Source: a virus
Lineage: Duplodnaviria; Heunggongvirae; Uroviricota; Caudoviricetes
DNA length: 12,244 nt
Virus record (IMG/VR): IMGVR_UViG_2681813321_000010
Reading direction: 5' to 3' (one strand)
The translations under genes were made by a program, and so were the position numbers. Below are positions 141-10,626 of the stretch, piece by piece (the stretch's first letter is position 1; each line of letters opens with the position of its first letter). The notes beneath the pieces are model-generated. The model was given only the letters and a program-made list of their open reading frames with translations, searched no databases and was not told the DNA's origin.

Positions 141-193
141 CGGCGGCAGAGCAGTCACGGAGTAAAACTGATACCGCCAAACGTCACCAGAAA
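141..193 (-). ncRNA. dicF: DicF sRNA (ftsZ-targeting antisense sRNA), copy 1
   Basis: The reverse complement of 141-193 reads tttctggtgacgtttggcggtatcagttttactccgtgactgctctgccgccg. I recognise this as the 53-nt DicF of E. coli Qin. A T-run on the minus strand (136-140) follows it. Its position downstream of ydfC matches K-12 synteny. Confidence 0.85.
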
Positions 194-533: not shown

Positions 534-752
534 TTAACGCGGGTATGTAATCATTCTGGCAATGCTTAATGCCGCTGCTTTTTCCAGCCTGGTGATATCC
601 TGCTCCAGAGCGGACAGATTTTCAGCCTGCTTAGCCCTGGCTTCATTGGCCCATTTCAGATCCTGCGCTGCATTAATTTTCTGGCGCATCCACTCATAAA
701 GTTCATCATCGGTATAGTCTGGCGAGATGATGACGGGTTCTCGTTTCTGCAT
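534..752 (-). CDS. ydfC: YdfC-like small prophage protein (72 aa)
   Basis: ORF-track translation MQKREPVIISPDYTDDELYEWMRQKINAAQDLKWANEARAKQ..., recognised as Qin YdfC. A GAGGA SD precedes the ATG on the minus strand. Synteny is ydfA-ydfB-ydfC-dicF. Confidence 0.85.
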   Translation of the reverse strand: MQKREPVIISPDYTDDELYEWMRQKINAAQDLKWANEARAKQAENLSALEQDITRLEKAAALSIARMITYPR

Positions 753-781
753 ACTGATTCCTCGCGGTGCTGCTTCGCTTA

Positions 782-910
782 TCAGCCGTTAGATTTTGCC
801 GAGCTGGAAAGCGCCTGTTTAAACTCACTGAAGCTGAGAGCTTCTTCGCCTTCGGCAAGGCCTTCGAAGTATTCTTCGTAAGCCTTTTCCATGATTGTGT
901 CGAAATCCAT
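782..910 (-). CDS. ydfB: YdfB-like small protein (42 aa); below the ORF-track length cut-off
   Basis: Hand translation of the minus strand from ATG 910-908 gives MDFDTIMEKAYEEYFEGLAEGEEALSFSEFKQALSSSAKSNG, with stop TGA at 784-782. The start lies 1 nt after the ydfA stop. It matches my recollection of Qin YdfB. Confidence 0.8.
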   Translation of the reverse strand: MDFDTIMEKAYEEYFEGLAEGEEALSFSEFKQALSSSAKSNG

Positions 911-911
911 A

Positions 912-1067
912 TCACTCACCTGAGTTTCTTTCCAGCCAGCGACGGGCACCATTTTCGGTTTTAAACGTTTTGCTTCTGGTATACGTCATCGCGGTAAACG
1001 TGCCGTCCTGGTTGGGAAACACGCCGTACACCAGAGATTCGTTGTTGCCAAGATCGATAGTATCCAT
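912..1067 (-). CDS. ydfA: YdfA-like protein (DUF1391 type, 51 aa from the internal Met)
   Basis: MDTIDLGNNESLVYGVFPNQDGTFTAMTYTRSKTFKTENGARRWLERNSGE. A GAGGT SD sits 4 nt upstream of ATG 1067-1065. The ORF-track start at 1121 has no SD, and K-12 YdfA is 51 aa. Confidence 0.8.
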   Translation of the reverse strand: MDTIDLGNNESLVYGVFPNQDGTFTAMTYTRSKTFKTENGARRWLERNSGE

Positions 1068-1144
1068 GCTGACCTCATTTCCCCTTAACGCTGGGGTAGC
1101 GGAACTGTTTGCTGAGAACACCGTGCGGTGTGTTGATGCAAATA

Positions 1145-1199
1145 AGATTAGCCATGGCTAACATATAGGTCAAGTGATTTTGTATGTTATGGCTAACAT
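1145..1199 (-). promoter_or_regulatory. Promoter and operators of the ydfABC-dicF operon, module 1
   Basis: On the minus strand: -35 TTGACC (1173-1168), a 17-nt spacer, then -10 TAATCT (1150-1145). The palindrome TTAGCCATGGCTAA (1148-1161) lies in the spacer/-10. A second imperfect site, TGTATGTTATGGCTAACA (1181-1198), lies upstream of the -35. Confidence 0.55.
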
Positions 1200-1211
1200 G
1201 ATTGATGTGGT

Positions 1212-1242
1212 AAAAGATAACTCATTGATGATGTTATCTTTT
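1212..1242 (-). terminator. Hairpin overlapping the dicA stop codon; possible (bidirectional) intrinsic terminator
   Basis: Perfect 10-bp inverted repeat aaaagataac (1212-1221) / gttatctttt (1233-1242) with an 11-nt loop. T/U-rich ends are present on both strands. Confidence 0.4.
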
Positions 1243-1641
1243 ATTTGTCCGCTGACGGGCTTTTAGTAATTCTTCAAAGAGTTTATTGAAGTTTTTTACT
1301 CGAGCTCGCATTTCGGCGAGCTGGGTATCCTGTTCTGATTCTGGCAGTGCATTAAACAGCTCAAGGAGCTCTAGTTCTTTGGGGGATAAGGCAACTGGCT
1401 TCTCAACAGGTGGTGTTGGTTGCTTGTCTTCATCGCCAAATAGAATCCATGTTGGTGAGCATTGCAATACTTTGCTGAGGGCAAAAAGGTTCTTCCCTGT
1501 AGGTTCACTATCATCCCGTTCCCATTGTGATACAGACACATGGGAGATTTTCAGGGCTTTAGCAAGAGACCTTTGGGTGTGTTTGAGGTTTTTCCGACGA
1601 TACCTAATGCGTTCGCCGATAGTTAAATTTTTTGTTTCCAT
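1234..1641 (-). CDS. dicA: DicA, XRE-family HTH prophage repressor (135 aa)
   Basis: Translation METKNLTIGERIRYRRKNLKHTQRSLAKALKISHVSVSQWER..., recognised as K-12 Qin DicA. It is divergent from dicC across an operator-rich spacer. There is no S24 peptidase domain. No SD precedes the ATG. Confidence 0.9.
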   Translation of the reverse strand: METKNLTIGERIRYRRKNLKHTQRSLAKALKISHVSVSQWERDDSEPTGKNLFALSKVLQCSPTWILFGDEDKQPTPPVEKPVALSPKELELLELFNALPESEQDTQLAEMRARVKNFNKLFEELLKARQRTNKR

Positions 1642-1643
1642 AG

Positions 1644-1709
1644 TTAGCTAATGCTAAATCGTATTGACTATGTTTTTGTTAACATCTATTTTGTTAGTTA
1701 TGACTAACA
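1644..1709. promoter_or_regulatory. dicA/dicC divergent control region, module 1
   Basis: Palindrome TTAGCTAATGCTAA (1644-1657) lies 2 nt from the dicA ATG. The rightward promoter is TTGACT (1664-1669), a 17-nt spacer, then TATTTT (1687-1692). A perfect 18-bp palindrome TGTTAGTTATGACTAACA (1692-1709) lies at or after the -10. Confidence 0.6.
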
Positions 1710-1724
1710 ATAAAGGTGTTTTAA

Positions 1725-1955
1725 ATGCTTAAAACTGACGCTCTTTTGTATTTCGGTTCAAAAACAAAACTTGCACAAGCAGCAGGTATTCGTTTGGCTT
1801 CGCTTTATAGCTGGAAAGGGGATTTAGTTCCCGAAGGTCGCGCGATGCGTCTACAGGAGGCATCTGGCGGGGAGCTTCAGTATGATCCCAAAGTTTATGA
1901 TGAATATCGTAAGACGAAGCGGGCGGGGCGGTTGAACAATGAAAATCACTCCTGA
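1725..1955 (+). CDS. dicC: DicC, Cro-like / YdaS-family HTH regulator (76 aa)
   Basis: Translation MLKTDALLYFGSKTKLAQAAGIRLASLYSWKGDLVPEGRAMRLQEASGGELQYDP..., recognised as K-12 DicC. It occupies the Cro position opposite the repressor. Confidence 0.9.
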   Translation: MLKTDALLYFGSKTKLAQAAGIRLASLYSWKGDLVPEGRAMRLQEASGGELQYDPKVYDEYRKTKRAGRLNNENHS

Positions 1956-2460
1956 ACAGGCTCGTGAGGCTCTGGATGCCTGGATATGTCGACCAGGAAT
2001 GACACAGGAGCAGGCGACGATATTAATCACTGAAGCATTCTGGGCTTTGAAAGAGCGCCCGAACATCGATGTTCAGCGTGTCACAGATGAAGGTGGCGCG
2101 GTTGATCAGCGAGCGCTTGGCGTTAATCGAGTGAAGATATTCGAACGCTGGAAGGCTATCGACACCAGGGATAAGCGTGAAAAGTTCACGGCGCTAGTGC
2201 CTGCGATTATGGAGGCTATCCGGATTAGTGATTTCAGGTTGTATCGTGAGATCAGTGATGGAAAAAGTATTACGTACATGATCGCCGGGTTAAATAAAGA
2301 ATATGGCGATGTGGTGGAATCCGGACTGCTTTTTGCAGATCCTGCCGTTGTAGATCGTGAAACTGACGAACTTATAGAAAAAGCAATTGCTTTCAAGCTT
2401 GCGTATCGACAGCAATACCAACAAAAAGCTGGATGGAATTATGAGTCTTCTTTTTGCTGA
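1939..2460 (+). CDS. YdaT-family (CII-like) early regulator, 173 aa
   Basis: The ORF overlaps the dicC stop by 17 nt. The segment KIFERWKAIDTRDKREKFTALVPAIMEAI resembles the Rac YdaT region as I recall it. Its position after the Cro-like gene equals the CII/YdaT slot of CP-933P/Rac-type prophages. Confidence 0.6.
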   Translation: MKITPEQAREALDAWICRPGMTQEQATILITEAFWALKERPNIDVQRVTDEGGAVDQRALGVNRVKIFERWKAIDTRDKREKFTALVPAIMEAIRISDFRLYREISDGKSITYMIAGLNKEYGDVVESGLLFADPAVVDRETDELIEKAIAFKLAYRQQYQQKAGWNYESSFC

Positions 2461-3406
2461 ACGCCCACTGGTTATAAACACGCAGCTGGCAATGAAAATT
2501 GGCTTAAACGAAGCCATTGTTTTGCAACAACTGCACTACTGGTTGAGAGATACCAACTCCGGCATGGAATGTGATGGTGTTCGCTGGATTTATAACACAA
2601 CGGAACAATGGCTGGAACAGTTCCCATTCTGGTCAGAGTCAACGTTAAAGCGCGCGTTTGCAAGTCTGAAAACGCTGGGGCTTTTGCGTTGTGAAAAGCT
2701 CAATAAATCAAAGCGCGATATGACCAATTTCTACACGATCAACTACGGGAGCGAGCTTTTAGATGGTGGCAAATTGAGCGAATCCATCGGTTTAAAATGC
2801 GCCGCTCCATCAGGTCAAAATGACACGATGGAAGAGGTCAAAATGAAACGCTCCATTGGTTCAAAACGACTCAATGTCATCGGGTCAAAATGGCCTGATG
2901 ATCTTACAGAGAATACAACAGAGATTACTACAGAGAATAAAAAGACTTCTCGTCCGGAAGCTTCGCAACCGGACCCGCAGACGGTTGAACAGGATTTTTT
3001 AACCCGACACCCTGACGCGGTTGTGTTCAGTGCGAAAAAACGCCAGTGGGGCAGCCAGGAAGATTTGGCGTGTGCGCAGTGGATCTGGGGGCGAATCGTG
3101 AGTCTTTACGAGCAGGCCGCCAGCGATGATGGCGAGATTTCGCGACCGAAAGAACCCAACTGGACCGCATGGGCCAACGACGTGCGCACAATGCGGATGC
3201 TGGATGGCAGAACTCACAGACAAATTTGTGAAATGTTTGGTCGGGTGCAGCGGGATCCATTCTGGGTAAAAAATATCATGAGTCCGTCAAAGCTTCGCGA
3301 AAAATGGGATGAACTGGTTATCCGCCTGGGGCGTTCGTCTGTACAGCGTTGTGTGAATCATATTTCTGAGCCGGATACCGAAATTCCGCCGGGCTTCAGG
3401 GGGTAA
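2441..3406 (+). CDS. Replication initiator, lambda O-like (321 aa from ATG 2441; the ORF is open from 2387)
   Basis: The N-terminal region looks like a winged helix (MSLLFAERPLVINTQLAMKIGLNEAIVLQQLHYWL...). An iteron array plus AT-rich tract lies inside the linker-coding part, as in lambda O/ori. The ATG at 2441 overlaps the upstream stop by 20 nt. Confidence 0.7.
   Translation: MSLLFAERPLVINTQLAMKIGLNEAIVLQQLHYWLRDTNSGMECDGVRWIYNTTEQWLEQFPFWSESTLKRAFASLKTLGLLRCEKLNKSKRDMTNFYTINYGSELLDGGKLSESIGLKCAAPSGQNDTMEEVKMKRSIGSKRLNVIGSKWPDDLTENTTEITTENKKTSRPEASQPDPQTVEQDFLTRHPDAVVFSAKKRQWGSQEDLACAQWIWGRIVSLYEQAASDDGEISRPKEPNWTAWANDVRTMRMLDGRTHRQICEMFGRVQRDPFWVKNIMSPSKLREKWDELVIRLGRSSVQRCVNHISEPDTEIPPGFRG
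2783..2945. repeat. Putative ori, module 1: five iterons plus an AT-rich tract inside the O-like gene
   Basis: The core GGT(C/T)(A/T)AAA(A/C)(T/G)G... (ggtttaaaatg, ggtcaaaatg x3, ggttcaaaacg) begins at 2789, 2813, 2836, 2858 and 2883, with 22-25 bp spacing. Several cores are preceded by tccatc/tccatt. The tract atcttacagagaatacaacagagattactacagagaataaaaa follows (2901-2943). Confidence 0.6.
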
Positions 3407-3446
3407 GTGTTAATTTCTGGTCATGAGGTAATTTTCAGGAGGGCTT

Positions 3447-3869
3447 GTGGCAAAAGTTTTTACACAAGAAGAGCGGGAAAAAATTAAAGGGCAGGTTGTT
3501 GAACTCGTACGCCGGAGTGGGCGTGAGACGTTACGGCAACTGGAAGTCAAGACAGGTGCGACAAGATATCTGATGAGCGTTCTCGCAAGAGAGCTGGTTG
3601 CCAGCGGCGATGTATACAACTCTGGTTACGGGTTATTCCCGTCTGAACAGGCGCGTAAGGACTGGCAAAATGCCCGTAAAAAGCTCTCAAGGGCAAAGCT
3701 GAAGGAACCATCTGCGGTTGATCCGGACCTTATCTGGTCATTACCTGACGGAGAAATACGTCGCTACGACAGGCGTCAGAACATAATCTGTCGCGAGTGC
3801 CGGAAGAGTGAAGTTATGCAGCGCATACTAGCATTCTATCAGGGAAATGCTCGATATTTATTGAAGTGA
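3447..3869 (+). CDS. Conserved early-region protein of unknown function (140 aa, GTG start)
   Basis: A CAGGAGGG SD lies 3 nt upstream of GTG 3447. The paralogue in module 2 is highly similar, with mostly conservative changes. I recognise no family. Confidence 0.6.
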   Translation: MAKVFTQEEREKIKGQVVELVRRSGRETLRQLEVKTGATRYLMSVLARELVASGDVYNSGYGLFPSEQARKDWQNARKKLSRAKLKEPSAVDPDLIWSLPDGEIRRYDRRQNIICRECRKSEVMQRILAFYQGNARYLLK

Positions 3870-4121
3870 TGAGATTAAAGTTTATTAGTTCAGATATTGA
3901 TTGGCTCTTTTGTGGAGTAGGGTAGAGTTAGTGTGTTTGTCTGCTTGGTGCCAGCAGCGGATATGTTTAACAACAGAAAGCATTCAGCATGGTTAGTGGA
4001 TTTGCAAAGTGGATTAGGATTTGAGAAACTTTGATGAAGTTGTAAAGCTTGTTTCTATAAAAATAGAAATTTAACTAATAGTTAAACACACCTCCAGCTT
4101 CATTGAAAAGGATTATTAGCT

Positions 4122-4547
4122 ATGATTGATCCACTTATTAGAAACTTACAGAGTGATATTGCACTACTCCAGCTTTATATCGCGCAACGCAAACAGGCAG
4201 GCTTTCATGACATGGAAAGAATAATTGAGTCATTGACCATCTTTATGTTTCGCGCGCTGAAAATGGGTGAACTGGTAAACATGAATCAGATTAAAGTTAA
4301 TTTTCCCGCCATTGATTTAGCTGATAATAAAAACATGATAGCAGTTCAAGTTACTACGAATGCAAGTCCAGCAAAAATTAAAAAAACTATCGAATCTTTT
4401 GAGAAAATAAATGAAATAGGAGAGAGTCTGAAAGATAAATACTCTACTTTATATATTTTTGGTTTTAACTGTTCCGCGTGCGCTCAGCCGCATTCACCGC
4501 ATCACAAAATTCACTTTAAAAACGGCGGCAGAGCAGTCACGGAGTAA
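4122..4547 (+). pseudogene. SMEK-domain protein N-terminal fragment, truncated at the module junction (4455/4456)
   Basis: AT-rich ORF. The motif ...VNFPAIDLADNKNMIAVQVTTNASPAKIKKTIESF... matches the SMEK-domain signature as I recall it (N..AIDL.D...IA.QVT....KI..T...F). After about codon 112 the frame runs into dicF-flanking repeat DNA and stops at 4547, antisense to dicF. Confidence 0.55.
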
Positions 4548-4575
4548 AACTGATACCGCCAAACGTCACCAGAAA
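4523..4575 (-). ncRNA. dicF: DicF sRNA, copy 2 (sequence identical to copy 1)
   Basis: Same 53-nt sequence and T-run as copy 1. It lies inside the perfect repeat. Confidence 0.85.
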
Positions 4576-4915
4576 ATTGATAACAGAGGGCGTTGCAGCG
4601 GGGTTGTCGCTTAAGCGTATGGTCAACCTGACAACCCGGTGTCCTCAACGGGGAAGGAATAACCCCGCCATACTTACCGCCGCGCCATTTCGCGGAGTGC
4701 CACAACCGGAAGCGCACGGTCGACGAAAATTTAACGACAGGCTATCTATGAACCAGCTACCTCGCCGTGCGCTTTCGCGTTATGGTCTGACTTTTCATGG
4801 AAATATCCTTTCAGTAAACTGTCAGTGCCGGATGCTCACCCATGTCCGGCGCACGCACTCCACCTCACCCGTGGAGAACTCCTTAATTACCAACCTTAGC
4901 TTCGTTGGTTAGCTA

Positions 4916-5134
4916 TTAACGCGGGTATGTAATCATTCTGGCAATGCTTAATGCCGCTGCTTTTTCCAGCCTGGTGATATCCTGCTCCAGAGCGGACAGA
5001 TTTTCAGCCTGCTTAGCCCTGGCTTCATTGGCCCATTTCAGATCCTGCGCTGCATTAATTTTCTGGCGCATCCACTCATAAAGTTCATCATCGGTATAGT
5101 CTGGCGAGATGATGACGGGTTCTCGTTTCTGCAT
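4916..5134 (-). CDS. ydfC: YdfC-like protein, copy 2 (identical 72 aa)
   Basis: The ORF-track translation is identical to 534-752. Confidence 0.85.
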   Translation of the reverse strand: MQKREPVIISPDYTDDELYEWMRQKINAAQDLKWANEARAKQAENLSALEQDITRLEKAAALSIARMITYPR

Positions 5135-5163
5135 ACTGATTCCTCGCGGTGCTGCTTCGCTTA

Positions 5164-5292
5164 TCAGCCGTTAGATTTTGCCGAGCTGGAAAGCGCCTGT
5201 TTAAACTCACTGAAGCTGAGAGCTTCTTCGCCTTCGGCAAGGCCTTCGAAGTATTCTTCGTAAGCCTTTTCCATGATTGTGTCGAAATCCAT
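5164..5292 (-). CDS. ydfB: YdfB-like protein, copy 2 (42 aa)
   Basis: Coordinates are copy 1 +4382. The stop tca was verified at 5164-5166. The DNA is identical. Confidence 0.8.
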   Translation of the reverse strand: MDFDTIMEKAYEEYFEGLAEGEEALSFSEFKQALSSSAKSNG

Positions 5293-5293
5293 A

Positions 5294-5449
5294 TCACTCA
5301 CCTGAGTTTCTTTCCAGCCAGCGACGGGCACCATTTTCGGTTTTAAACGTTTTGCTTCTGGTATACGTCATCGCGGTAAACGTGCCGTCCTGGTTGGGAA
5401 ACACGCCGCATACCAGAGATTCGTTGTTGCCAAGATCGATAGTATTCAT
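5294..5449 (-). CDS. ydfA: YdfA-like protein, copy 2 (51 aa; MNTIDLG..., 2 aa differences from copy 1)
   Basis: Internal Met of ORF 5294-5503. It differs from copy 1 at D2N and Y14C. Confidence 0.8.
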   Translation of the reverse strand: MNTIDLGNNESLVCGVFPNQDGTFTAMTYTRSKTFKTENGARRWLERNSGE

Positions 5450-5526
5450 GCTGACCTCATTTCCCCTTAACGCCGGGGTAGCGGAACTGTTTGCTGAGAA
5501 CACCGTGCGGTGTCTTGGTGGAGATT

Positions 5527-5580
5527 AATTTAGAATAACCTAACAAATGTAGCAAGTATTTTTGTTAGATTGGTCTAACA
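5527..5580 (-). promoter_or_regulatory. Promoter and operators of the ydfABC-dicF operon, module 2
   Basis: On the minus strand: -35 TTGCTA (5555-5550), a 17-nt spacer, then -10 TAAATT (5532-5527). TTAGAATAACCTAACA (5530-5545) lies in the spacer/-10. A perfect 18-bp palindrome TGTTAGATTGGTCTAACA (5563-5580) lies upstream of the -35. The architecture matches module 1 but the bases differ. Confidence 0.55.
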
Positions 5581-5616
5581 AAAAGAGTGAGGGAATCTAA
5601 GTATCTGAAAGGAGTG

Positions 5617-6024
5617 TTATTTTATTGATTTGTTTTTACGTGCTTTAAGCATTTCTTCGAAGAGTTTATTGAAATTCTCTACTCTTGCGCGCATTTCAGA
5701 CAGTAAGGCTTCCTGCTCGGAGGAGGGAAGAGCATCGAATAATTCGATCAATTCTTTGTGGCTGGGAGTTAACTCGGTTTCCACATGAAGTTCTTGTGCT
5801 GGCACTGGTGCCTTGTCTTCGTCACCAAACATTAGCCATGTAGGCGAGCACTTCAGCGCATCAGCTAAAGCAAATAACCGCTTCCCGACCGGTTGGGTTT
5901 CGTCTCTTTCCCATTGTGAAATTGTGACGTGAGCTACCCCAGCGAGGCGTGCAGCTTCTCGTTGTGTTAGGCGTAATTCTTTTCGTCGTGCCAGAACTCG
6001 CTGGCCTAGGGTTCTTGTATCCAT
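5617..6024 (-). CDS. DicA-family XRE HTH repressor, second allele (135 aa)
   Basis: Same length and position as DicA. By eye it is roughly half identical: MDTRTLGQRVLARRKELRLTQREAARLAGVAHVTISQWER... versus DicA. The shared blocks are CSPTW..FGDEDK and MRARV.NFNKLFEE.LKAR. Confidence 0.85.
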   Translation of the reverse strand: MDTRTLGQRVLARRKELRLTQREAARLAGVAHVTISQWERDETQPVGKRLFALADALKCSPTWLMFGDEDKAPVPAQELHVETELTPSHKELIELFDALPSSEQEALLSEMRARVENFNKLFEEMLKARKNKSIK

Positions 6025-6026
6025 AG

Positions 6027-6091
6027 TTAGGTAATTCTAATTTTTCTTGACTTAGGTATCCCGCGCACATTACTGTTAGGAATATCTAACA
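6027..6091. promoter_or_regulatory. Repressor/Cro-like divergent control region, module 2
   Basis: TTAGGTAATTCTAA (6027-6040) lies 2 nt from the repressor ATG. The rightward promoter is TTGACT (6047-6052), an 18-nt spacer, then TACTGT (6071-6076). An 18-bp site TGTTAGGAATATCTAACA (6074-6091) overlaps the -10. Confidence 0.55.
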
Positions 6092-6104
6092 AGAGGGGGC
6101 TTTG

Positions 6105-6332
6105 ATGCTTAAAGTTGACGCAATTACTTTTTTTGGCAGCAAAACAAAACTTGCCAATGCCGCAGGAGTGAAACTGGCAAGTGTTGCTGCATGGGGGGAA
6201 CTGGTTCCTGAAGGTCGCGCGATGCGCCTGCAAGAGGCATCCGGCGGGGAACTTCAGTACGACCCCAAAGTTTATGACGAATATCGTAAGGCAAAGCGGG
6301 CGGGGCGGTTGAACAATGAAAATCACCCCTGA
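6105..6332 (+). CDS. DicC/YdaS-family Cro-like regulator, second allele (75 aa from ATG 6105)
   Basis: An AGAGGGGG SD lies 5 nt upstream of ATG 6105; the ORF track starts at TTG 6102. The N-terminal HTH half is diverged from DicC. The C-terminal half (LVPEGRAMRLQEASGGELQYDPKVYDEYRK.KRAGRLNNENH) is nearly identical. Confidence 0.85.
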   Translation: MLKVDAITFFGSKTKLANAAGVKLASVAAWGELVPEGRAMRLQEASGGELQYDPKVYDEYRKAKRAGRLNNENHP

Positions 6333-6837
6333 ACAGGTTTGTGAGGCTCTGGATGCCTGGGTATGCCGACCAGGAATGACACAGGAGCAGGCGACGATAT
6401 TAATCACGGAAGCATTCTGGGCTCTGAAAGAACGCCCGAACATCGATGTTCAACGCGTCACGTTTAATGATGGCGAGGTTGATCAACGGGCGTTGGGCGT
6501 TAACCGGGTGAAGATATTCGAACGCTGGAAAGCTATCGACACCAGGGATAAGCGGGAAAAATTCACGGCGCTGATTCCGGCAATTATGGAGGCTATCCGG
6601 ATCAGCGATTTCAGGTTGTATTGTGAAATTACTGACGGAAAAAGCATTACGTACATGATCGCCGGGTTAAACAAAGAATATGGTGATGTGGTGGAGTCCG
6701 GGCTGCTTTTTGCGGATCCATCTGTTGTGGAACGTGAGACTGACGAGCTTATAGAAAAAGCTATTGCTTTCAAGCATGCGTATCGTCAGCAATACCAACA
6801 AAAAGCTGGATGGAATTATGAGCCTTCTTTTTGCTGA
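6316..6837 (+). CDS. YdaT-family (CII-like) early regulator, copy 2 (173 aa)
   Basis: Paralogue of 1939-2460 with few substitutions. It has the same 17-nt overlap with the upstream gene. Confidence 0.6.
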   Translation: MKITPEQVCEALDAWVCRPGMTQEQATILITEAFWALKERPNIDVQRVTFNDGEVDQRALGVNRVKIFERWKAIDTRDKREKFTALIPAIMEAIRISDFRLYCEITDGKSITYMIAGLNKEYGDVVESGLLFADPSVVERETDELIEKAIAFKHAYRQQYQQKAGWNYEPSFC

Positions 6838-7783
6838 ACGCCCACTGGTTATAAACACACAGCTTGCGATGAAGATTGGCTTAAATGAAGCCATTGTGTT
6901 GCAGCAGTTGCATTACTGGTTGAGAGATACCAGTTCCGGTATGGAATGTGACGGGGTTCGCTGGATTTATAACACAACAGAACAATGGCTGGAACAGTTC
7001 CCGTTCTGGTCAGAGTCAACGTTAAAACGCGCATTTGCAAGTCTGAAAACGCTGGGGCTTTTGCGTTGCGAAAAGCTCAACAAATCAAAGCGTGATATGA
7101 CTAATTTTTACACGATTAATTACGAGAGTGAGCTTTTAGATGGTGGCAAAGTGAGCGAATCCATCAGGTCAAAATGCGCCGCTCCATCGGGTCAAAATGA
7201 CACGATGGAAGAGGTCAAAATGGCACGCTCCATTGGTTCAAAACGACCCAATGTCATCGGGTCAAAATGGCCTGATGATCTTACAGAGAATACAACAGAG
7301 ATTACTACAGAGAATAAAAACACTTCTCGTCCGGAAGCTTCGCAACCGGACCCGCAGACGGCTGAACAGGATTTTTTAACCCGACACCCTGACGCGGTTG
7401 TGTTCAGTGCGAAAAAACGCCAGTGGGGAAGTCAGGAAGATTTGGCGTGCGCACAGTGGATCTGGGGACGAATCGTGAGTCTTTACGAGCAGGCTGCCAG
7501 CGATGATGGCGAGATCACGCGACCGAAAGAACCAAACTGGACCGCATGGGCCAATGACGTGCGCACAATGCGGATGCTGGATGGCAGAAGCCACAGACAA
7601 ATTTGCGAAATGTTTGGTCGGGTACAGCGAGATCCATTCTGGGTAAAAAACATCATGAGCCCGTCAAAGCTTCGCGAAAAATGGGACGACCTGGTCATCC
7701 GCCTGGGGCGTTCACCTGTACAGTGTTGTGTGAATCATATTTCTGAACCGGATACCGAAATTCCGCCTGGTTTCAGGGGATAA
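6818..7783 (+). CDS. Replication initiator, lambda O-like, copy 2 (321 aa)
   Basis: By my count there are 14 aa differences from copy 1 over 321 aa. It is intact and contains the second iteron array. Confidence 0.7.
   Translation: MSLLFAERPLVINTQLAMKIGLNEAIVLQQLHYWLRDTSSGMECDGVRWIYNTTEQWLEQFPFWSESTLKRAFASLKTLGLLRCEKLNKSKRDMTNFYTINYESELLDGGKVSESIRSKCAAPSGQNDTMEEVKMARSIGSKRPNVIGSKWPDDLTENTTEITTENKNTSRPEASQPDPQTAEQDFLTRHPDAVVFSAKKRQWGSQEDLACAQWIWGRIVSLYEQAASDDGEITRPKEPNWTAWANDVRTMRMLDGRSHRQICEMFGRVQRDPFWVKNIMSPSKLREKWDDLVIRLGRSPVQCCVNHISEPDTEIPPGFRG
7160..7322. repeat. Putative ori, module 2: five iterons plus an AT-rich tract
   Basis: ggtcaaaatg cores start near 7167, 7190, 7213 and 7260, with ggttcaaaacg at 7235. 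The same acagagaatacaacagagattactacagagaataaaaa tract follows. Confidence 0.6.
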
Positions 7784-7823
7784 GTGGTGATTTTAGGGCA
7801 TAAAGTAATGTTCAGGAGGACTT

Positions 7824-8231
7824 ATGGCAAAAGTATTTACACAGGAAGAGCGGGAAAAAATTAAAGGACAGGTGGTGGAACTCGTGCGCCAGAGCGGTCG
7901 TGAGACGTTACGGCAACTGGAAGCTAAAACAGGTGCGACAAGATATCTGATGAGCGTTCTTGCCAGAGAGCTGGTTGCCAGTGGTGATGTATATCACTCT
8001 GGCTATGGGGTGTTCCCGTCAGAACGGGCTCGTAAGGACTGGCAAAACGCCCGCAAAAAACTCTCGAGGGCAAAGGTGAAGAAACCTGTTGTGGTTGATC
8101 CGGGCCTTATCTGGACATTACCCGACGGAGAAATACGCCGCTACGACAGGCGTATGAACATAATCTGTCGCGAGTGCCGGAAGAGCGAAGTTATGCAGCG
8201 TGTATTGGCGTTCTATCAGGGATATGCCTAG
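7824..8231 (+). CDS. Conserved early-region protein of unknown function, copy 2 (135 aa, ATG start)
   Basis: A CAGGAGGA SD is present. It is the paralogue of 3447-3869 and differs mainly at the extreme C-terminus. Confidence 0.6.
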   Translation: MAKVFTQEEREKIKGQVVELVRQSGRETLRQLEAKTGATRYLMSVLARELVASGDVYHSGYGVFPSERARKDWQNARKKLSRAKVKKPVVVDPGLIWTLPDGEIRRYDRRMNIICRECRKSEVMQRVLAFYQGYA

Positions 8232-8599
8232 AATTGTCACAGGTAATGAAATTAAAGAGTATTGGTTCGGATATGAATTGACATTTTCGCGGCACAGAGC
8301 TAAAAATAGCCTACTTGTTGGTTTTGTGTGAAAAGCAGACATTTTGAGGCTCAGGATTTGTTATCAAATAAGACCAATACTTATCTATATTAATACACAT
8401 TAAATACTGTGCAATACATTATTGCATTTTATTAGATAAGCGATATTTAGGGAAAAGAAAAGTCATAGAAAACAGGCCGCTATTTGTTGTTGGATTTTAT
8501 AGGCTATATCTAGATTATCTTGCCACTGCGGTCTCTGTTTACCTAACAGCTTGGGCTTCTTTGCATGCAAGTTTGTAATAACAAGAGTAATCAAACGGA

Positions 8600-9631
8600 A
8601 TGTCTATTAATCCTAAACTTAAGCGTATCGCGCGACGCTATCCAGCGTTATTCCAATATGAGTCCCCCTATATGGCAAGAAAATTAATAATATTCGGCAA
8701 CGGTCTCGGTATGGCTTTAGATCCTGCTCACTTCTCCTTAGACAGAGCGTTGGAAGAAATTTGGCATCGCCCCAATTTTTTAAAAGATATCCACAAGCAA
8801 CTTATCGAGCGTTGTCTTCAGCGGCAAGGTCCACCAGAAGGAGAACATGAGTTGGATACCCTTCACCAGGCTGTCACATATTGTAAAGCTCTTGCTCAAA
8901 TTGGAGAGGGGAACGTGCATTGGCTTACTGAAGATGGACTAAACTTCCCCAAAATTACCGCCACTTATATTCACAAAGTTGCAACCAGGTTGCATAATTA
9001 CGATAAAGGTTTGCCACAAAGATTCGAAAATGCGCTTGTGGAGTTTGTAAAGAACACACACTCACATATCGCGACATTAAACTATGACAAATTATTATAC
9101 AATTCATTCATAGATAATGATATATTCAACGGGTATGATGGGGTTTTAGTTGATGGGATGCTAAGCCACGGATTTTCCTCTGCAGCGCTCGAACGGAAAT
9201 ACAATCGTAGGTTTGGTTATTATTTGCACTTGCATGGTTCACCACTATTTATTAATCAGCATGAAAATGTTTTAAAACTTTCACGCTCACAACTTACTCT
9301 TGACATAGATGAACCTAGTGAGCATATAGTGTTAACTCATATAAAAAGAAAACCGTCAGTTATAGCAGCATCTAATGTTCTTTCTACGTACTGGGATTAT
9401 TTGCAGTTTGCATTATTTGAATCAGAAGAAATAATATTGTTTGGTTACTCTGGTCTCGATATTCACCTTAACCTGCTTATTCGACCTTACCTAACCTCTA
9501 AGCCTTTAAGAGTAATTGAGTGGAGCGGTGCTGGTGAACAAAACGCTCGTGAGATATATTGGAAAAACCAGTTGAGACGGGAAGTTACTGTAATTAGGTT
9601 GGATAACATCACTGATTTTATTGATTGGTAG
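8600..9631 (+). CDS. Stand-alone SIR2-like (DHS-like NAD-binding fold, SIR2_2-type) protein, 343 aa; candidate defence NADase
   Basis: Four motifs occur in the order typical of prokaryotic SIR2_2 proteins. These are LIIFGNGLG (aa 29-37, cf. GAGxS), IATLNYDKLL (aa 157-166, cf. TTNYD), YLHLHGSP (aa 208-215, cf. xHLHG) and IILFGYSGLD (aa 278-287, cf. GYSxxD). The gene and its 370-bp upstream region are visibly AT-rich relative to the flanks. Confidence 0.6.
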   Translation: MSINPKLKRIARRYPALFQYESPYMARKLIIFGNGLGMALDPAHFSLDRALEEIWHRPNFLKDIHKQLIERCLQRQGPPEGEHELDTLHQAVTYCKALAQIGEGNVHWLTEDGLNFPKITATYIHKVATRLHNYDKGLPQRFENALVEFVKNTHSHIATLNYDKLLYNSFIDNDIFNGYDGVLVDGMLSHGFSSAALERKYNRRFGYYLHLHGSPLFINQHENVLKLSRSQLTLDIDEPSEHIVLTHIKRKPSVIAASNVLSTYWDYLQFALFESEEIILFGYSGLDIHLNLLIRPYLTSKPLRVIEWSGAGEQNAREIYWKNQLRREVTVIRLDNITDFIDW

Positions 9632-9791: not shown

Positions 9792-9887
9792 TTTTATATT
9801 GGCGAGGTGACGGGAGTTAAGTAGAATTGCTGCGGGTGCTTGAGGCTGTCTGCCTCGGGCATGCCACCGTAAGGCAGACAGAGAAAA

Positions 9888-9955
9888 GCCCCAGTTAACA
9901 TTACGCGTCCTGCAAGACGCTTAACATTAATCTGAGGCCCAATCTATGCTTCACA
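9888..9955 (-). ncRNA. sok: Sok-like antisense RNA (approximate ends)
   Basis: On the minus strand: promoter TTGCCT (9989-9984), a 17-nt spacer, then TAACCT (9966-9961). The transcript would be antisense to the mok start and leader. It contains the hairpin gcgtc/gacgc (9905-9920) and then a cttttctc tail. Confidence 0.4.
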
Positions 9956-10158
9956 AACGTAGGTTAGCCTCTTACGCGCCGAAAGGCAAGGAGAAGCAGG
10001 CTATGAAGCAGCAAAAGGCGATGTTAATCGCCCTGATCGTCATCTGTTTAACCGTCATAGTGACGGCACTGGTAACGAGGAAAGACCTCTGCGAGGTACG
10101 AATCCGAACCGGCCAGACGGAGGTCGCTGTCTTCACAGCTTACGAACCTGAGGAGTAA
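9946..10158 (+). CDS. mok: Mok-like regulatory reading frame (70 aa, in-frame N-terminal extension of Hok)
   Basis: ORF MLHKRRLASYAPKGKEKQA followed by Hok. The arrangement resembles chromosomal mokC/hokC-type loci. Confidence 0.6.
   Translation: MLHKRRLASYAPKGKEKQAMKQQKAMLIALIVICLTVIVTALVTRKDLCEVRIRTGQTEVAVFTAYEPEE
10003..10158 (+). CDS. hokD: Hok-family type I toxin, HokD/RelF-like (51 aa)
   Basis: MKQQKAMLIALIVICLTVIVTALVTRKDLCEVRIRTGQTEVAVFTAYEPEE, recognised as K-12 HokD. A GGAG SD lies inside mok. Confidence 0.9.
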   Translation: MKQQKAMLIALIVICLTVIVTALVTRKDLCEVRIRTGQTEVAVFTAYEPEE

Positions 10159-10374: not shown

Positions 10375-10626
10375 ATGATGAACATCGAAGAACTGCGTAA
10401 AATTTTTTGTGAAGATGGCCTCTATGCTGTGTGCGTTGAAAATGGAAATATTGTTAGTCATTACCGCATTGTGTGTTTGCGAAAGAATGGGGCTGCGTTA
10501 ATTAATTTTGTGGATGGTCGAGTGACAGACGGATTTATCTTGCGCGAAGGTGAGTTTGTCACTTCATTACAGGCACTGAAAGAGATCGGAATAAAAGCTG
10601 GCTTTTCTGCTTTTTCAGAAGAATAA
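10375..10626 (+). CDS. rem: Rem-like prophage protein (83 aa)
   Basis: MMNIEELRKIFCEDGLYAVCVENGN..., recognised as Qin Rem. A GGAAGGA SD is present. It lies next to hokD, as in K-12. Confidence 0.8.
   Translation: MMNIEELRKIFCEDGLYAVCVENGNIVSHYRIVCLRKNGAALINFVDGRVTDGFILREGEFVTSLQALKEIGIKAGFSAFSEE

Follow-up and report, generated by a model that had tools for sequence, protein, structure and literature searches.

A stretch of viral DNA of 12,244 nucleotides (IMG/VR virus record IMGVR_UViG_2681813321_000010; Duplodnaviria, Heunggongvirae, Uroviricota, Caudoviricetes), referred to here as the window, carries two immunity modules of the DicA/DicC type. In each, a repressor gene (dicA) and a gene for a Cro-like protein (dicC) lie on opposite strands, and a leftward operon of ydf genes and dicF shares the strand of the repressor. 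It is probable that these are two head-to-tail modules of the P22 immC and Qin DicA class, representing distinct immunity alleles, and that any coupling between them is mediated by DicC or by the antirepressor Rem. The genes of module 1 are as follows.

141–192, minus strand: dicF small RNA, copy 1, at the end of the module 1 leftward operon (Rfam RF00039, 72.5 bits against a gathering score of 48).
534–1067, minus strand: ydfC (534–752), ydfB (782–910) and ydfA/DUF1391 (912–1067), identified as open reading frames, with the same genes annotated in Escherichia coli K-12 and FDAARGOS_1059.
1234–1641, minus strand: dicA-1, repressor of 135 amino acids with the helix SHVSVSQWER (NCBIfam NF007257, 235.6 bits against a cut-off of 101).
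1725–1955, plus strand: dicC-1, Cro-like protein of 76 amino acids (NF007282, 159.5 bits; Pfam P22_Cro).

By sequence comparison, module 1 is essentially the dicA–dicC locus that E. coli K-12 has in its Qin prophage. The DicA-1 protein differs from K-12 DicA by a single residue (G43D), DicC-1 is identical to K-12 DicC, and the dicA–dicC intergenic region has one difference from K-12 in 95 aligned positions. The 20-mer at 1691–1710 is identical to the experimentally defined DicA operator, Oc. In K-12, DicA binds Oc in vivo, binding is lost when an A of the CTAA half-site is changed to C, and at this operator dicC is repressed and dicA is stimulated (Yun et al., 2012; PMC3441716). The promoter dicBp is likewise repressed by DicA in K-12 (PMC10448788). 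The N-terminal domain of DicA-1 also matches the structures of the P22 c2 repressor (E=8e-20).

The second module repeats this organization with a different repressor.

4523–4574, minus strand: dicF small RNA, copy 2 (Rfam RF00039); the operon is cut 67 nt downstream and no dicB follows.
4916–5449, minus strand: ydfC, ydfB and ydfA, copy 2 (open reading frames; alignment of the two units).
5617–6024, minus strand: dicA-2, repressor of 135 amino acids with the helix AHVTISQWER (NF007257, 224 bits against a cut-off of 101).
6105–6332, plus strand: dicC-2, Cro-like protein of 75 amino acids (NF007282, 166.7 bits; Pfam P22_Cro).

The two helix strings given in the initial annotation, which was made from the sequence alone, are both present in the translations. 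DicA-2 is 58 % identical to DicA-1, and DicC-2 is 83 % identical to DicC-1 with the differences in the N-terminal helix-turn-helix (HTH) half. The copy 2 ydfC, ydfB and distal ydfA are identical to copy 1; the few differences are in the part of ydfA nearest the promoter. Module 2 agrees with the K-12 locus in gene order, spacing, and the positions of its operators, the gene order of the whole locus matches K-12, and both modules are, judged by homology, relatives of P22 immC. Both repressors contain only HTH-type Pfam domains (HTH_3 in both and Phage_CI_repr also in DicA-1), the Pfam search found no Peptidase_S24 or LexA-type autocleavage domain in either, and DicA is reported to lack the Ala-Gly cleavage site (PMC10448788).

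Module 2 represents another widespread immunity allele of the DicA/DicC type, which shares its backbone and attachment site with the module 1 type. DicA-2 or a close relative is encoded on more than 230 IMG/VR contigs, and in 5,426 complete E. coli genomes allele 1 was present in 851 and allele 2 in 566. Allele 2 can occupy the attachment site next to rspB that is used by Qin in K-12.

The initial annotation had proposed that each module has two operators at the leftward promoter of the ydfA operon and two between the repressor gene and the Cro-like gene, all fitting TTAG-N6-CTAA. Across the whole window TTAGNNNNNNCTAA has seven exact matches (at 1148, 1644, 1694, 5530, 5565, 6027, and 6076), where 0.14 would be expected; seven or more were found in none of 200 dinucleotide-preserving shuffles. 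An eighth site, TATGTTATGGCTAA, is degenerate, with two mismatches in one half-site, and is the counterpart of the module 2 site at 5565. Together these occupy all four expected regulatory positions in both modules, as proposed, and the three module 1 sites originally listed are its three perfect matches. Perfect copies of the longer TGTTAG-N6-CTAACA are at 1692, 5563, and 6074. Loci whose repressor has the SHVSV helix are here called class 1 and those with AHVTI class 2, and sites were scored with a matrix for each class.

1148–1161, no strand assigned: OL1-like operator of module 1, TTAGCCATGGCTAA, a motif match in the promoter spacer overlapping the -10 (class 1 matrix score 26.4).
1183–1196, no strand assigned: degenerate OL2-like site of module 1, TATGTTATGGCTAA, with two mismatches, upstream of the -35.
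1644–1657, no strand assigned: ATG-proximal operator of module 1, OR3-like and probably 'Oa', a motif match holding the dicA -10 and start.
1691–1710, no strand assigned: Oc of module 1, TTGTTAGTCATAACTAACAA on the minus strand, equal to the published Oc, with the 14 bp core at 1694–1707.
5530–5543, no strand assigned: OL1-like operator of module 2, TTAGAATAACCTAA, a motif match (class 2 matrix score 22.8).
5565–5578, no strand assigned: OL2-like operator of module 2, TTAGATTGGTCTAA, a motif match (class 2 matrix score 22.2).
6027–6040, no strand assigned: ATG-proximal operator of module 2, TTAGGTAATTCTAA, a motif match holding the predicted -10 TAGAAT.
6076–6089, no strand assigned: Oc-equivalent operator of module 2, TTAGGAATATCTAA, a motif match within the 18-mer 6074–6091 (class 2 matrix score 25.1).

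The leftward ydfA-operon promoter of each module has one site that occupies its spacer and overlaps its -10 and another upstream of its -35; two more are between the repressor gene and the Cro-like gene. The OL2-like position is imperfect in those class 1 loci where a site was detected. The difference in inner operator bases that had been noted for the two modules is consistent: the base after TTAG, position 5 of the half-site, is a pyrimidine in all eight module 1 half-sites and a purine in all eight of module 2. DicA dimers would bind the 14 bp cores, at Oc in the start region of the dicC promoter, at the two sites of the ydfA-operon promoter and at the site by the repressor ATG. A third, middle operator (Om/OR2) was considered and rejected, as module 1 has no more than a short palindrome there and module 2 a single half-site. 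There are thus two recognisable sites per side, not the three at OR and three at OL of P22, with no more than one half-site left in the middle.

The promoters associated with these operators are listed below. The promoter scan returned the dicC-1 promoter only; it found no full dicC-2 promoter and missed those of dicA and dicBp, and the dicA and dicBp promoters were assigned by eye and by homology.

1145–1173, minus strand: predicted dicBp-type promoter of module 1, -35 TTGACC (1168–1173), 17 nt spacer, -10 TAATCT (1145–1150), read from the sequence and the K-12 alignment.
1664–1692, plus strand: dicC-1 promoter, TTGACT-17-TATTTT, from the promoter scan, with Oc just downstream.
5527–5555, minus strand: predicted dicBp-type promoter of module 2, -35 TTGCTA (5550–5555), 17 nt spacer, -10 TAAATT (5527–5532), read from the sequence and aligned with module 1 and K-12.
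6047–6052, plus strand: -35 TTGACT of the predicted dicC-2 promoter, with a weak -10 (ATTACT or TACTGT), read from the sequence at a position kept in module 1 and P22.

Putative -35 and -10 elements of dicC were underlined by Yun et al. in the K-12 dicA–dicC intergenic region (PMC3441716).

It had also been suggested that both repressor genes lack a Shine–Dalgarno sequence and that their mRNAs are leaderless. The ATG contexts gCTAACTATG and cCTAACTATG are indeed present, and no Shine–Dalgarno-like motif occurs at -18 to -5 of dicA in either module. In K-12 the dicA transcript starts 3 nt upstream of the ATG by differential RNA-seq (Table S3), as confirmed by RLM-RT-PCR, and dicA is among five E. 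coli mRNAs whose leaders measure less than 10 nt by differential RNA-seq (PMC4681348). This start maps to position 1644 of the window, on the minus strand, at the outer end of the ATG-proximal operator and its last base there; from -90 to +3 of dicA, module 1 and K-12 differ by one base. The dicA-1 -10, TAGCAT (1651–1656, minus strand), is inside the same operator, and TAGAAT is found at the same place in module 2 (6034–6039, minus strand), where transcription of dicA-2 is predicted to start at 6027, 3 nt before the ATG. The suggestion thus holds for module 1 through the mapped K-12 start, and extends to module 2 as a prediction by homology. Across 25 distinct upstream sequences of the family, a TAnnnT hexamer is at -15/-14 in 17 and shifted by a few nucleotides in four more, and a Shine–Dalgarno motif is absent from 22. 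Because module 1 is nearly identical to the K-12 locus, its operator architecture and leaderless mRNA are already published and are not new.

In P22, ATTTAAGATGACTTAACT abuts the ATG of c2 in the same layout, and an operator 2 nt from the ATG is, on this comparison, what P22-type immunity regions have as their OR3/PRM arrangement. No paper describing a leaderless mRNA for P22 c2 came up in the literature searches. The site at the repressor ATG would bear both the dicA -10 (TAGNAT) and the start, giving a leader of about 3 nt, and could shut off dicA in the manner of OR3 in lambda. Its distal half-site doubles as the -10, which accounts for its inner bases, atypical for class 1 (TTAGCAT), and its low matrix score. 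Since the dicA -35 region is inside the spacer of the dicC-1 promoter, DicA at Oc may 'activate' dicA by removing a competing polymerase. Separately, a conserved inverted repeat, AACACACCGCACGGTGTT (minus strand), is present at 1113–1130 and 5495–5512 in the leader of the ydfA-operon transcript, as well as in locus L015, and might be a processing or antitermination hairpin.

The initial annotation left open whether the two repressors are hetero-immune or cross-talking. For comparison, 196 related loci were collected, sites were extracted at the conserved positions, and repressors were clustered at 85 % identity. In the four clusters with the SHVSV helix (Escherichia, Citrobacter, Serratia, and a viral contig), position 5 is a pyrimidine in 64 of 64 half-sites. 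The AHVTI helix is found in seven clusters (Escherichia, Buttiauxella, Citrobacter, Enterobacter, Pantoea/Erwinia, Rahnella, and Symbiopectobacterium), each with a majority of purines at this position, which total 87 of 96 half-sites. Other helices of the family (SxxSISLWE, SHVTIFKWE, and the P22-like SNVAISQWE) pair with other half-sites at the same positions, for example TTGAG and TTAAG.

The geometry of the P22 operator points to a role of this base in recognition. In P22 the TpA steps are contacted by Val33 of the repressor, and the half-site is TTAAG with a conserved G (PMC5175364). The TpA steps of the module operators are 10 bp apart as in P22, so position 5 aligns with the conserved G, outside the uncontacted central 4 bp. 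Being of the contacted type and covarying with the helix across genera, position 5 favours distinct repressor specificities, in which SHVSV would read TTAG-Y-Y-A and AHVTI would read TTAG-R-W-W (Y, pyrimidine; R, purine; W, A or T). Full homo-immunity, in which the inner bases are an uncontacted spacer as in 434 and P22 and either repressor controls all eight sites, would suit the identical outer half-sites and the uncontacted central bases of those two operators. It is nevertheless very improbable, as the TpA alignment leaves only the central 4 bp as a P22-type spacer and makes position 5 the equivalent of the conserved P22 G, the pyrimidine/purine partition by helix class is strict, and the diverged segment is bounded like a classical immunity-region replacement. 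The comparative data therefore favour the hetero-immune answer to the question, and the repressors are most likely hetero-immune, each mainly controlling its own promoters. No paper on hetero-immunity among DicA alleles was found in the literature searches.

Partial cross-reaction of the repressors through the common TTAG/CTAA, with DicA-2 at Oc of module 1, DicA-1 at the Oc-equivalent of module 2, or both, would give the coupled double switch raised in the initial annotation. The recognition helices have H, V, S, Q, W, E, and R in common, and position 5 is a pyrimidine in 9 of the 96 class 2 half-sites. Oc of module 1, which has T at position 5 in both halves, scores 19.0 on the class 2 matrix, where module 2 sites score 20–25 (the weakest 20.2), and the Oc-equivalent of module 2 scores 12.1 on the class 1 matrix, against 12.5 for the ATG-proximal site of module 1. 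These count-based scores are close, so some weak cross-binding at Oc-type sites is possible, and this weighs against a clean separation of the two repressors. Such coupling seems unlikely. Position 5 is always a pyrimidine in class 1 lineages and mostly a purine in every class 2 lineage despite freely varying neighbours, which argues for selection for discrimination, and DicA is sensitive to sequence, since one base change in Oc abolishes its binding. Only 23 genomes carry both alleles, at separate places, where 89 would be expected (in the 5,426 complete E. coli genomes), a deficit that could be taken in support of cross-reaction. It was rejected as evidence of immunity, as the attachment site next to rspB is common to the two alleles and the shortage of two-allele genomes is explained by this.

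Other observations also count against distinct specificities acting at all eight sites. Each helix class may be monophyletic, in which case the covariation would be one ancestral change that was then kept. In K-12, Oa and Om alone are reported not to be bound by DicA in vivo (data not shown in PMC3441716), so the ATG-proximal site may serve chiefly for DicC or need cooperativity. The DicA sites at dicBp are rated as low-evidence with location unknown (PMC7567609), and both the specificity of DicA-2 and the binding of DicC-2 are inferred only. The original view that all eight sites are repressor operators is supported at Oc, which DicA binds, and is opposed by the results for Oa and Om.

If the modules are coupled at all, the route is more likely to be DicC and the single Rem than cross-binding of the repressors. 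DicC proteins from a class 1 Citrobacter locus (L003) and a class 2 Buttiauxella locus (L009) are 91 % identical over the N-terminal 45 residues, with identical HTH, whereas the DNA-binding domains of their repressors are only 54 % identical. No clean covariation of the DicC recognition helix with operator class was seen in the loci compared. In chromatin immunoprecipitation sequencing (ChIP-seq) of DicC the strongest peaks flank dicA, with the palindromic motif TT(A/C/T)G...C(G/A/T)AA (PMC11430063); DicA is not mentioned in that compendium paper. The unpartitioned helix and the relaxed ChIP-seq motif suggest that the shared TTAG/CTAA is all that DicC reads and that DicC could act on both modules, although this is drawn from one clear natural swap.

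The antirepressor gene is present once in the window.

10375–10626, plus strand: rem, antirepressor of DicA, the sole copy in the window (79 of 83 residues identical to K-12 Rem).

Rem relieves DicA repression in K-12 (PMC10448788), and is 95–100 % identical whether linked to allele 1 (K-12) or to allele 2 (FDAARGOS_1059 and XJ6.1). This near-identity beside either allele suggests that the same antirepressor serves both repressors, and Rem probably acts on both DicA alleles. No LexA box (CTGT-N8-ACAG, with up to one mismatch) was found upstream of rem. A more elaborate arrangement can be put forward tentatively, in which the repressors of co-resident Qin-like prophages are orthogonal by the position 5 code (helix S-V versus T-I), DicC and Rem cross-act, the left, dicB-side operon answers to DicA-1, and the right operon (replication, rem, lysis) answers to DicA-2. 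A single signal from DicC or Rem would then flip both switches, as a layered and asymmetric coupling in place of simple hetero-immunity. Upstream of rem, at 9834–10158, there is also a sok antisense RNA (Rfam, 116 bits) with a hokD-type toxin open reading frame (9946–10158).

The modules are parts of a direct repeat in the window with an offset of 4382 bp, position 74 corresponding to 4456. Identity between the units is 100 % from 74 to approximately 970 (dicF, ydfC, ydfB, and distal ydfA), 49–67 % per 100 bp window across approximately 1130–1860, the immunity region, and about 84–98 % through the rightward genes. Taken on the alignment, this profile is the classical mosaic of lambdoid immunity-region replacement. 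The left arms (74–1000 and 4456–5382) are identical over about 900 bp and the right arms (1860–3860 and 6237–8237) are about 84–98 % identical; perfect identity on one side suggests recent gene conversion or recombination there, or collapse of the assembly consensus.

4122–4466, plus strand: truncated SMEK-domain gene ending at the junction (NF033859); likeness to intact SMEK genes ends at 4466.
4456–4466, no strand assigned: junction of the units, with the 11 bp microhomology TTTTTGGTTTT, from the repeat alignment.

Only the tandem arrangement is unusual, the remaining biology being largely ordinary. The junction was absent, as a 37 nt exact pattern or a 411 nt query, from the 5,426 complete E. 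coli genomes, IMG/VR, and the JGI metagenomes, and all 46 natural loci with the anchor sequence continue like copy 1. It cuts the module 2 operon 67 nt beyond dicF, removing dicB, and truncates the SMEK gene. The strains nearest to the window (H54) carry both alleles at separate places. Together with left arms that are identical over some 900 bp beside right arms at about 90 %, these features would fit a tandem that is not a stable natural structure, arising either as an assembly or chimeric-read artefact or as a rearrangement that happened once, between two Qin-like prophages in the same strain, with no selected 'double switch'. Such an origin seems somewhat unlikely, given that the 11 bp microhomology is typical of real illegitimate recombination and the reading frames are intact in both units.

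Several features of the surrounding DNA were also seen. The slot between the DUF977 gene and hokD has cargo that differs from prophage to prophage (3900–4547 and 8400–9631 in the window; 8699–10090 in L198; 12065–14851 in L199), including SMEK (accompanied in natural loci by a methyltransferase), a SIR2-like protein, relBE/flxA for K-12, and, for XJ6.1, an ABC-three-component system; it has the look of a hot spot for accessory or defence genes. A gene of 173 amino acids follows dicC in both modules (1939–2460 and 6316–6837) and is annotated 'toxin YdaT family' (Pfam YdaT_toxin, a weak match); K-12 has the ydfX pseudogene in this position, and both modules of the window keep an intact copy. Enterobacterial DicA contigs are also present in Gram-positive bins, L001 in a Collinsella metagenome-assembled genome (MAG) and L015 and L016 in Bacillota and Veillonella MAGs, most likely through binning contamination.

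Compared with the K-12 Qin locus (Bejar & Bouche, 1988; Yun et al., 2012; Ragunathan & Vanderpool, 2023), module 1 shares Oc, the ydfABC–dicF operon, the dicA start 3 nt before the ATG, and a downstream rem. Unlike that locus, the window has two modules in tandem, and module 2 has a repressor only 58 % identical, a purine at position 5, and no dicB in its operon. The likeness to P22 immC (PDB 2R1J and 3JXB) includes a homologous N-terminal domain with the recognition-helix valine kept, membership of DicC in the P22_Cro family, TpA steps 10 bp apart, an OR3-type site abutting the ATG (AACTATG conserved), and the rightward-promoter -35 TTGACT in the same place. The modules differ from P22 in the half-site (TTAG-Y or TTAG-R, not TTAAG), in having two recognisable sites per side with the OR2-type site degenerate, and in the short C-terminal domain of DicA, which has no S24 peptidase domain and is not RecA-cleavable.

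As for lambda cI transcribed from PRM, the repressor mRNA is essentially leader-free with no Shine–Dalgarno sequence, the operator nearest the start codon overlaps the repressor promoter, and DicA stimulates its own transcription (Yun et al., 2012). However, the dicA leader is 3 nt where lambda cI has none, and activation of K-12 dicA maps to Oc, the OR1-equivalent, and may relieve competition from the dicC promoter and not involve an OR2-type contact. The imm434, imm21, and immP22 replacements likewise have conserved flanks around a diverged repressor, its operators, and the N-terminal half of Cro; in the window, however, the two specificities share the outer four half-site bases and are less far apart than those of lambda and 434.

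The Gifsy prophages offer a precedent for coupling. Antirepressors act across the hetero-immune repressors GfoR and GfhR of Gifsy-1 and Gifsy-3, coupling co-resident prophages (Lemire et al., 2011; PMC3121763); in that work DicA is named as a member of the group of short non-cleavable repressors, and Rem was found through GfoA. The window resembles these systems in its short non-cleavable repressors with differing operators and in the antirepressor gene, rem, in the same prophage. It differs from the GfoR/GtgR type in the lack of a LexA box at rem, and the action of Rem on DicA-2 is predicted only.

The DicA/DicC switch governs DicB and DicF, which are toxic inhibitors of cell division, and a large proportion of E. 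coli genomes carry it. The novelty here is modest, being a second allele of a known switch and a simple, testable specificity rule, with the double switch unproven; the established picture of lambdoid immunity is unchanged, Oc and the leaderless feature having been published. If the rule is true (TTAG-Y with SHVSV and TTAG-R with AHVTI), the immunity groups of Qin-like prophages would be predictable from sequence, and it would become possible to design orthogonal repressor/operator pairs of the P22 type. Should DicC and Rem work on either allele, prophages of this kind would be induced jointly in poly-lysogens, as has been shown for the Gifsy phages.

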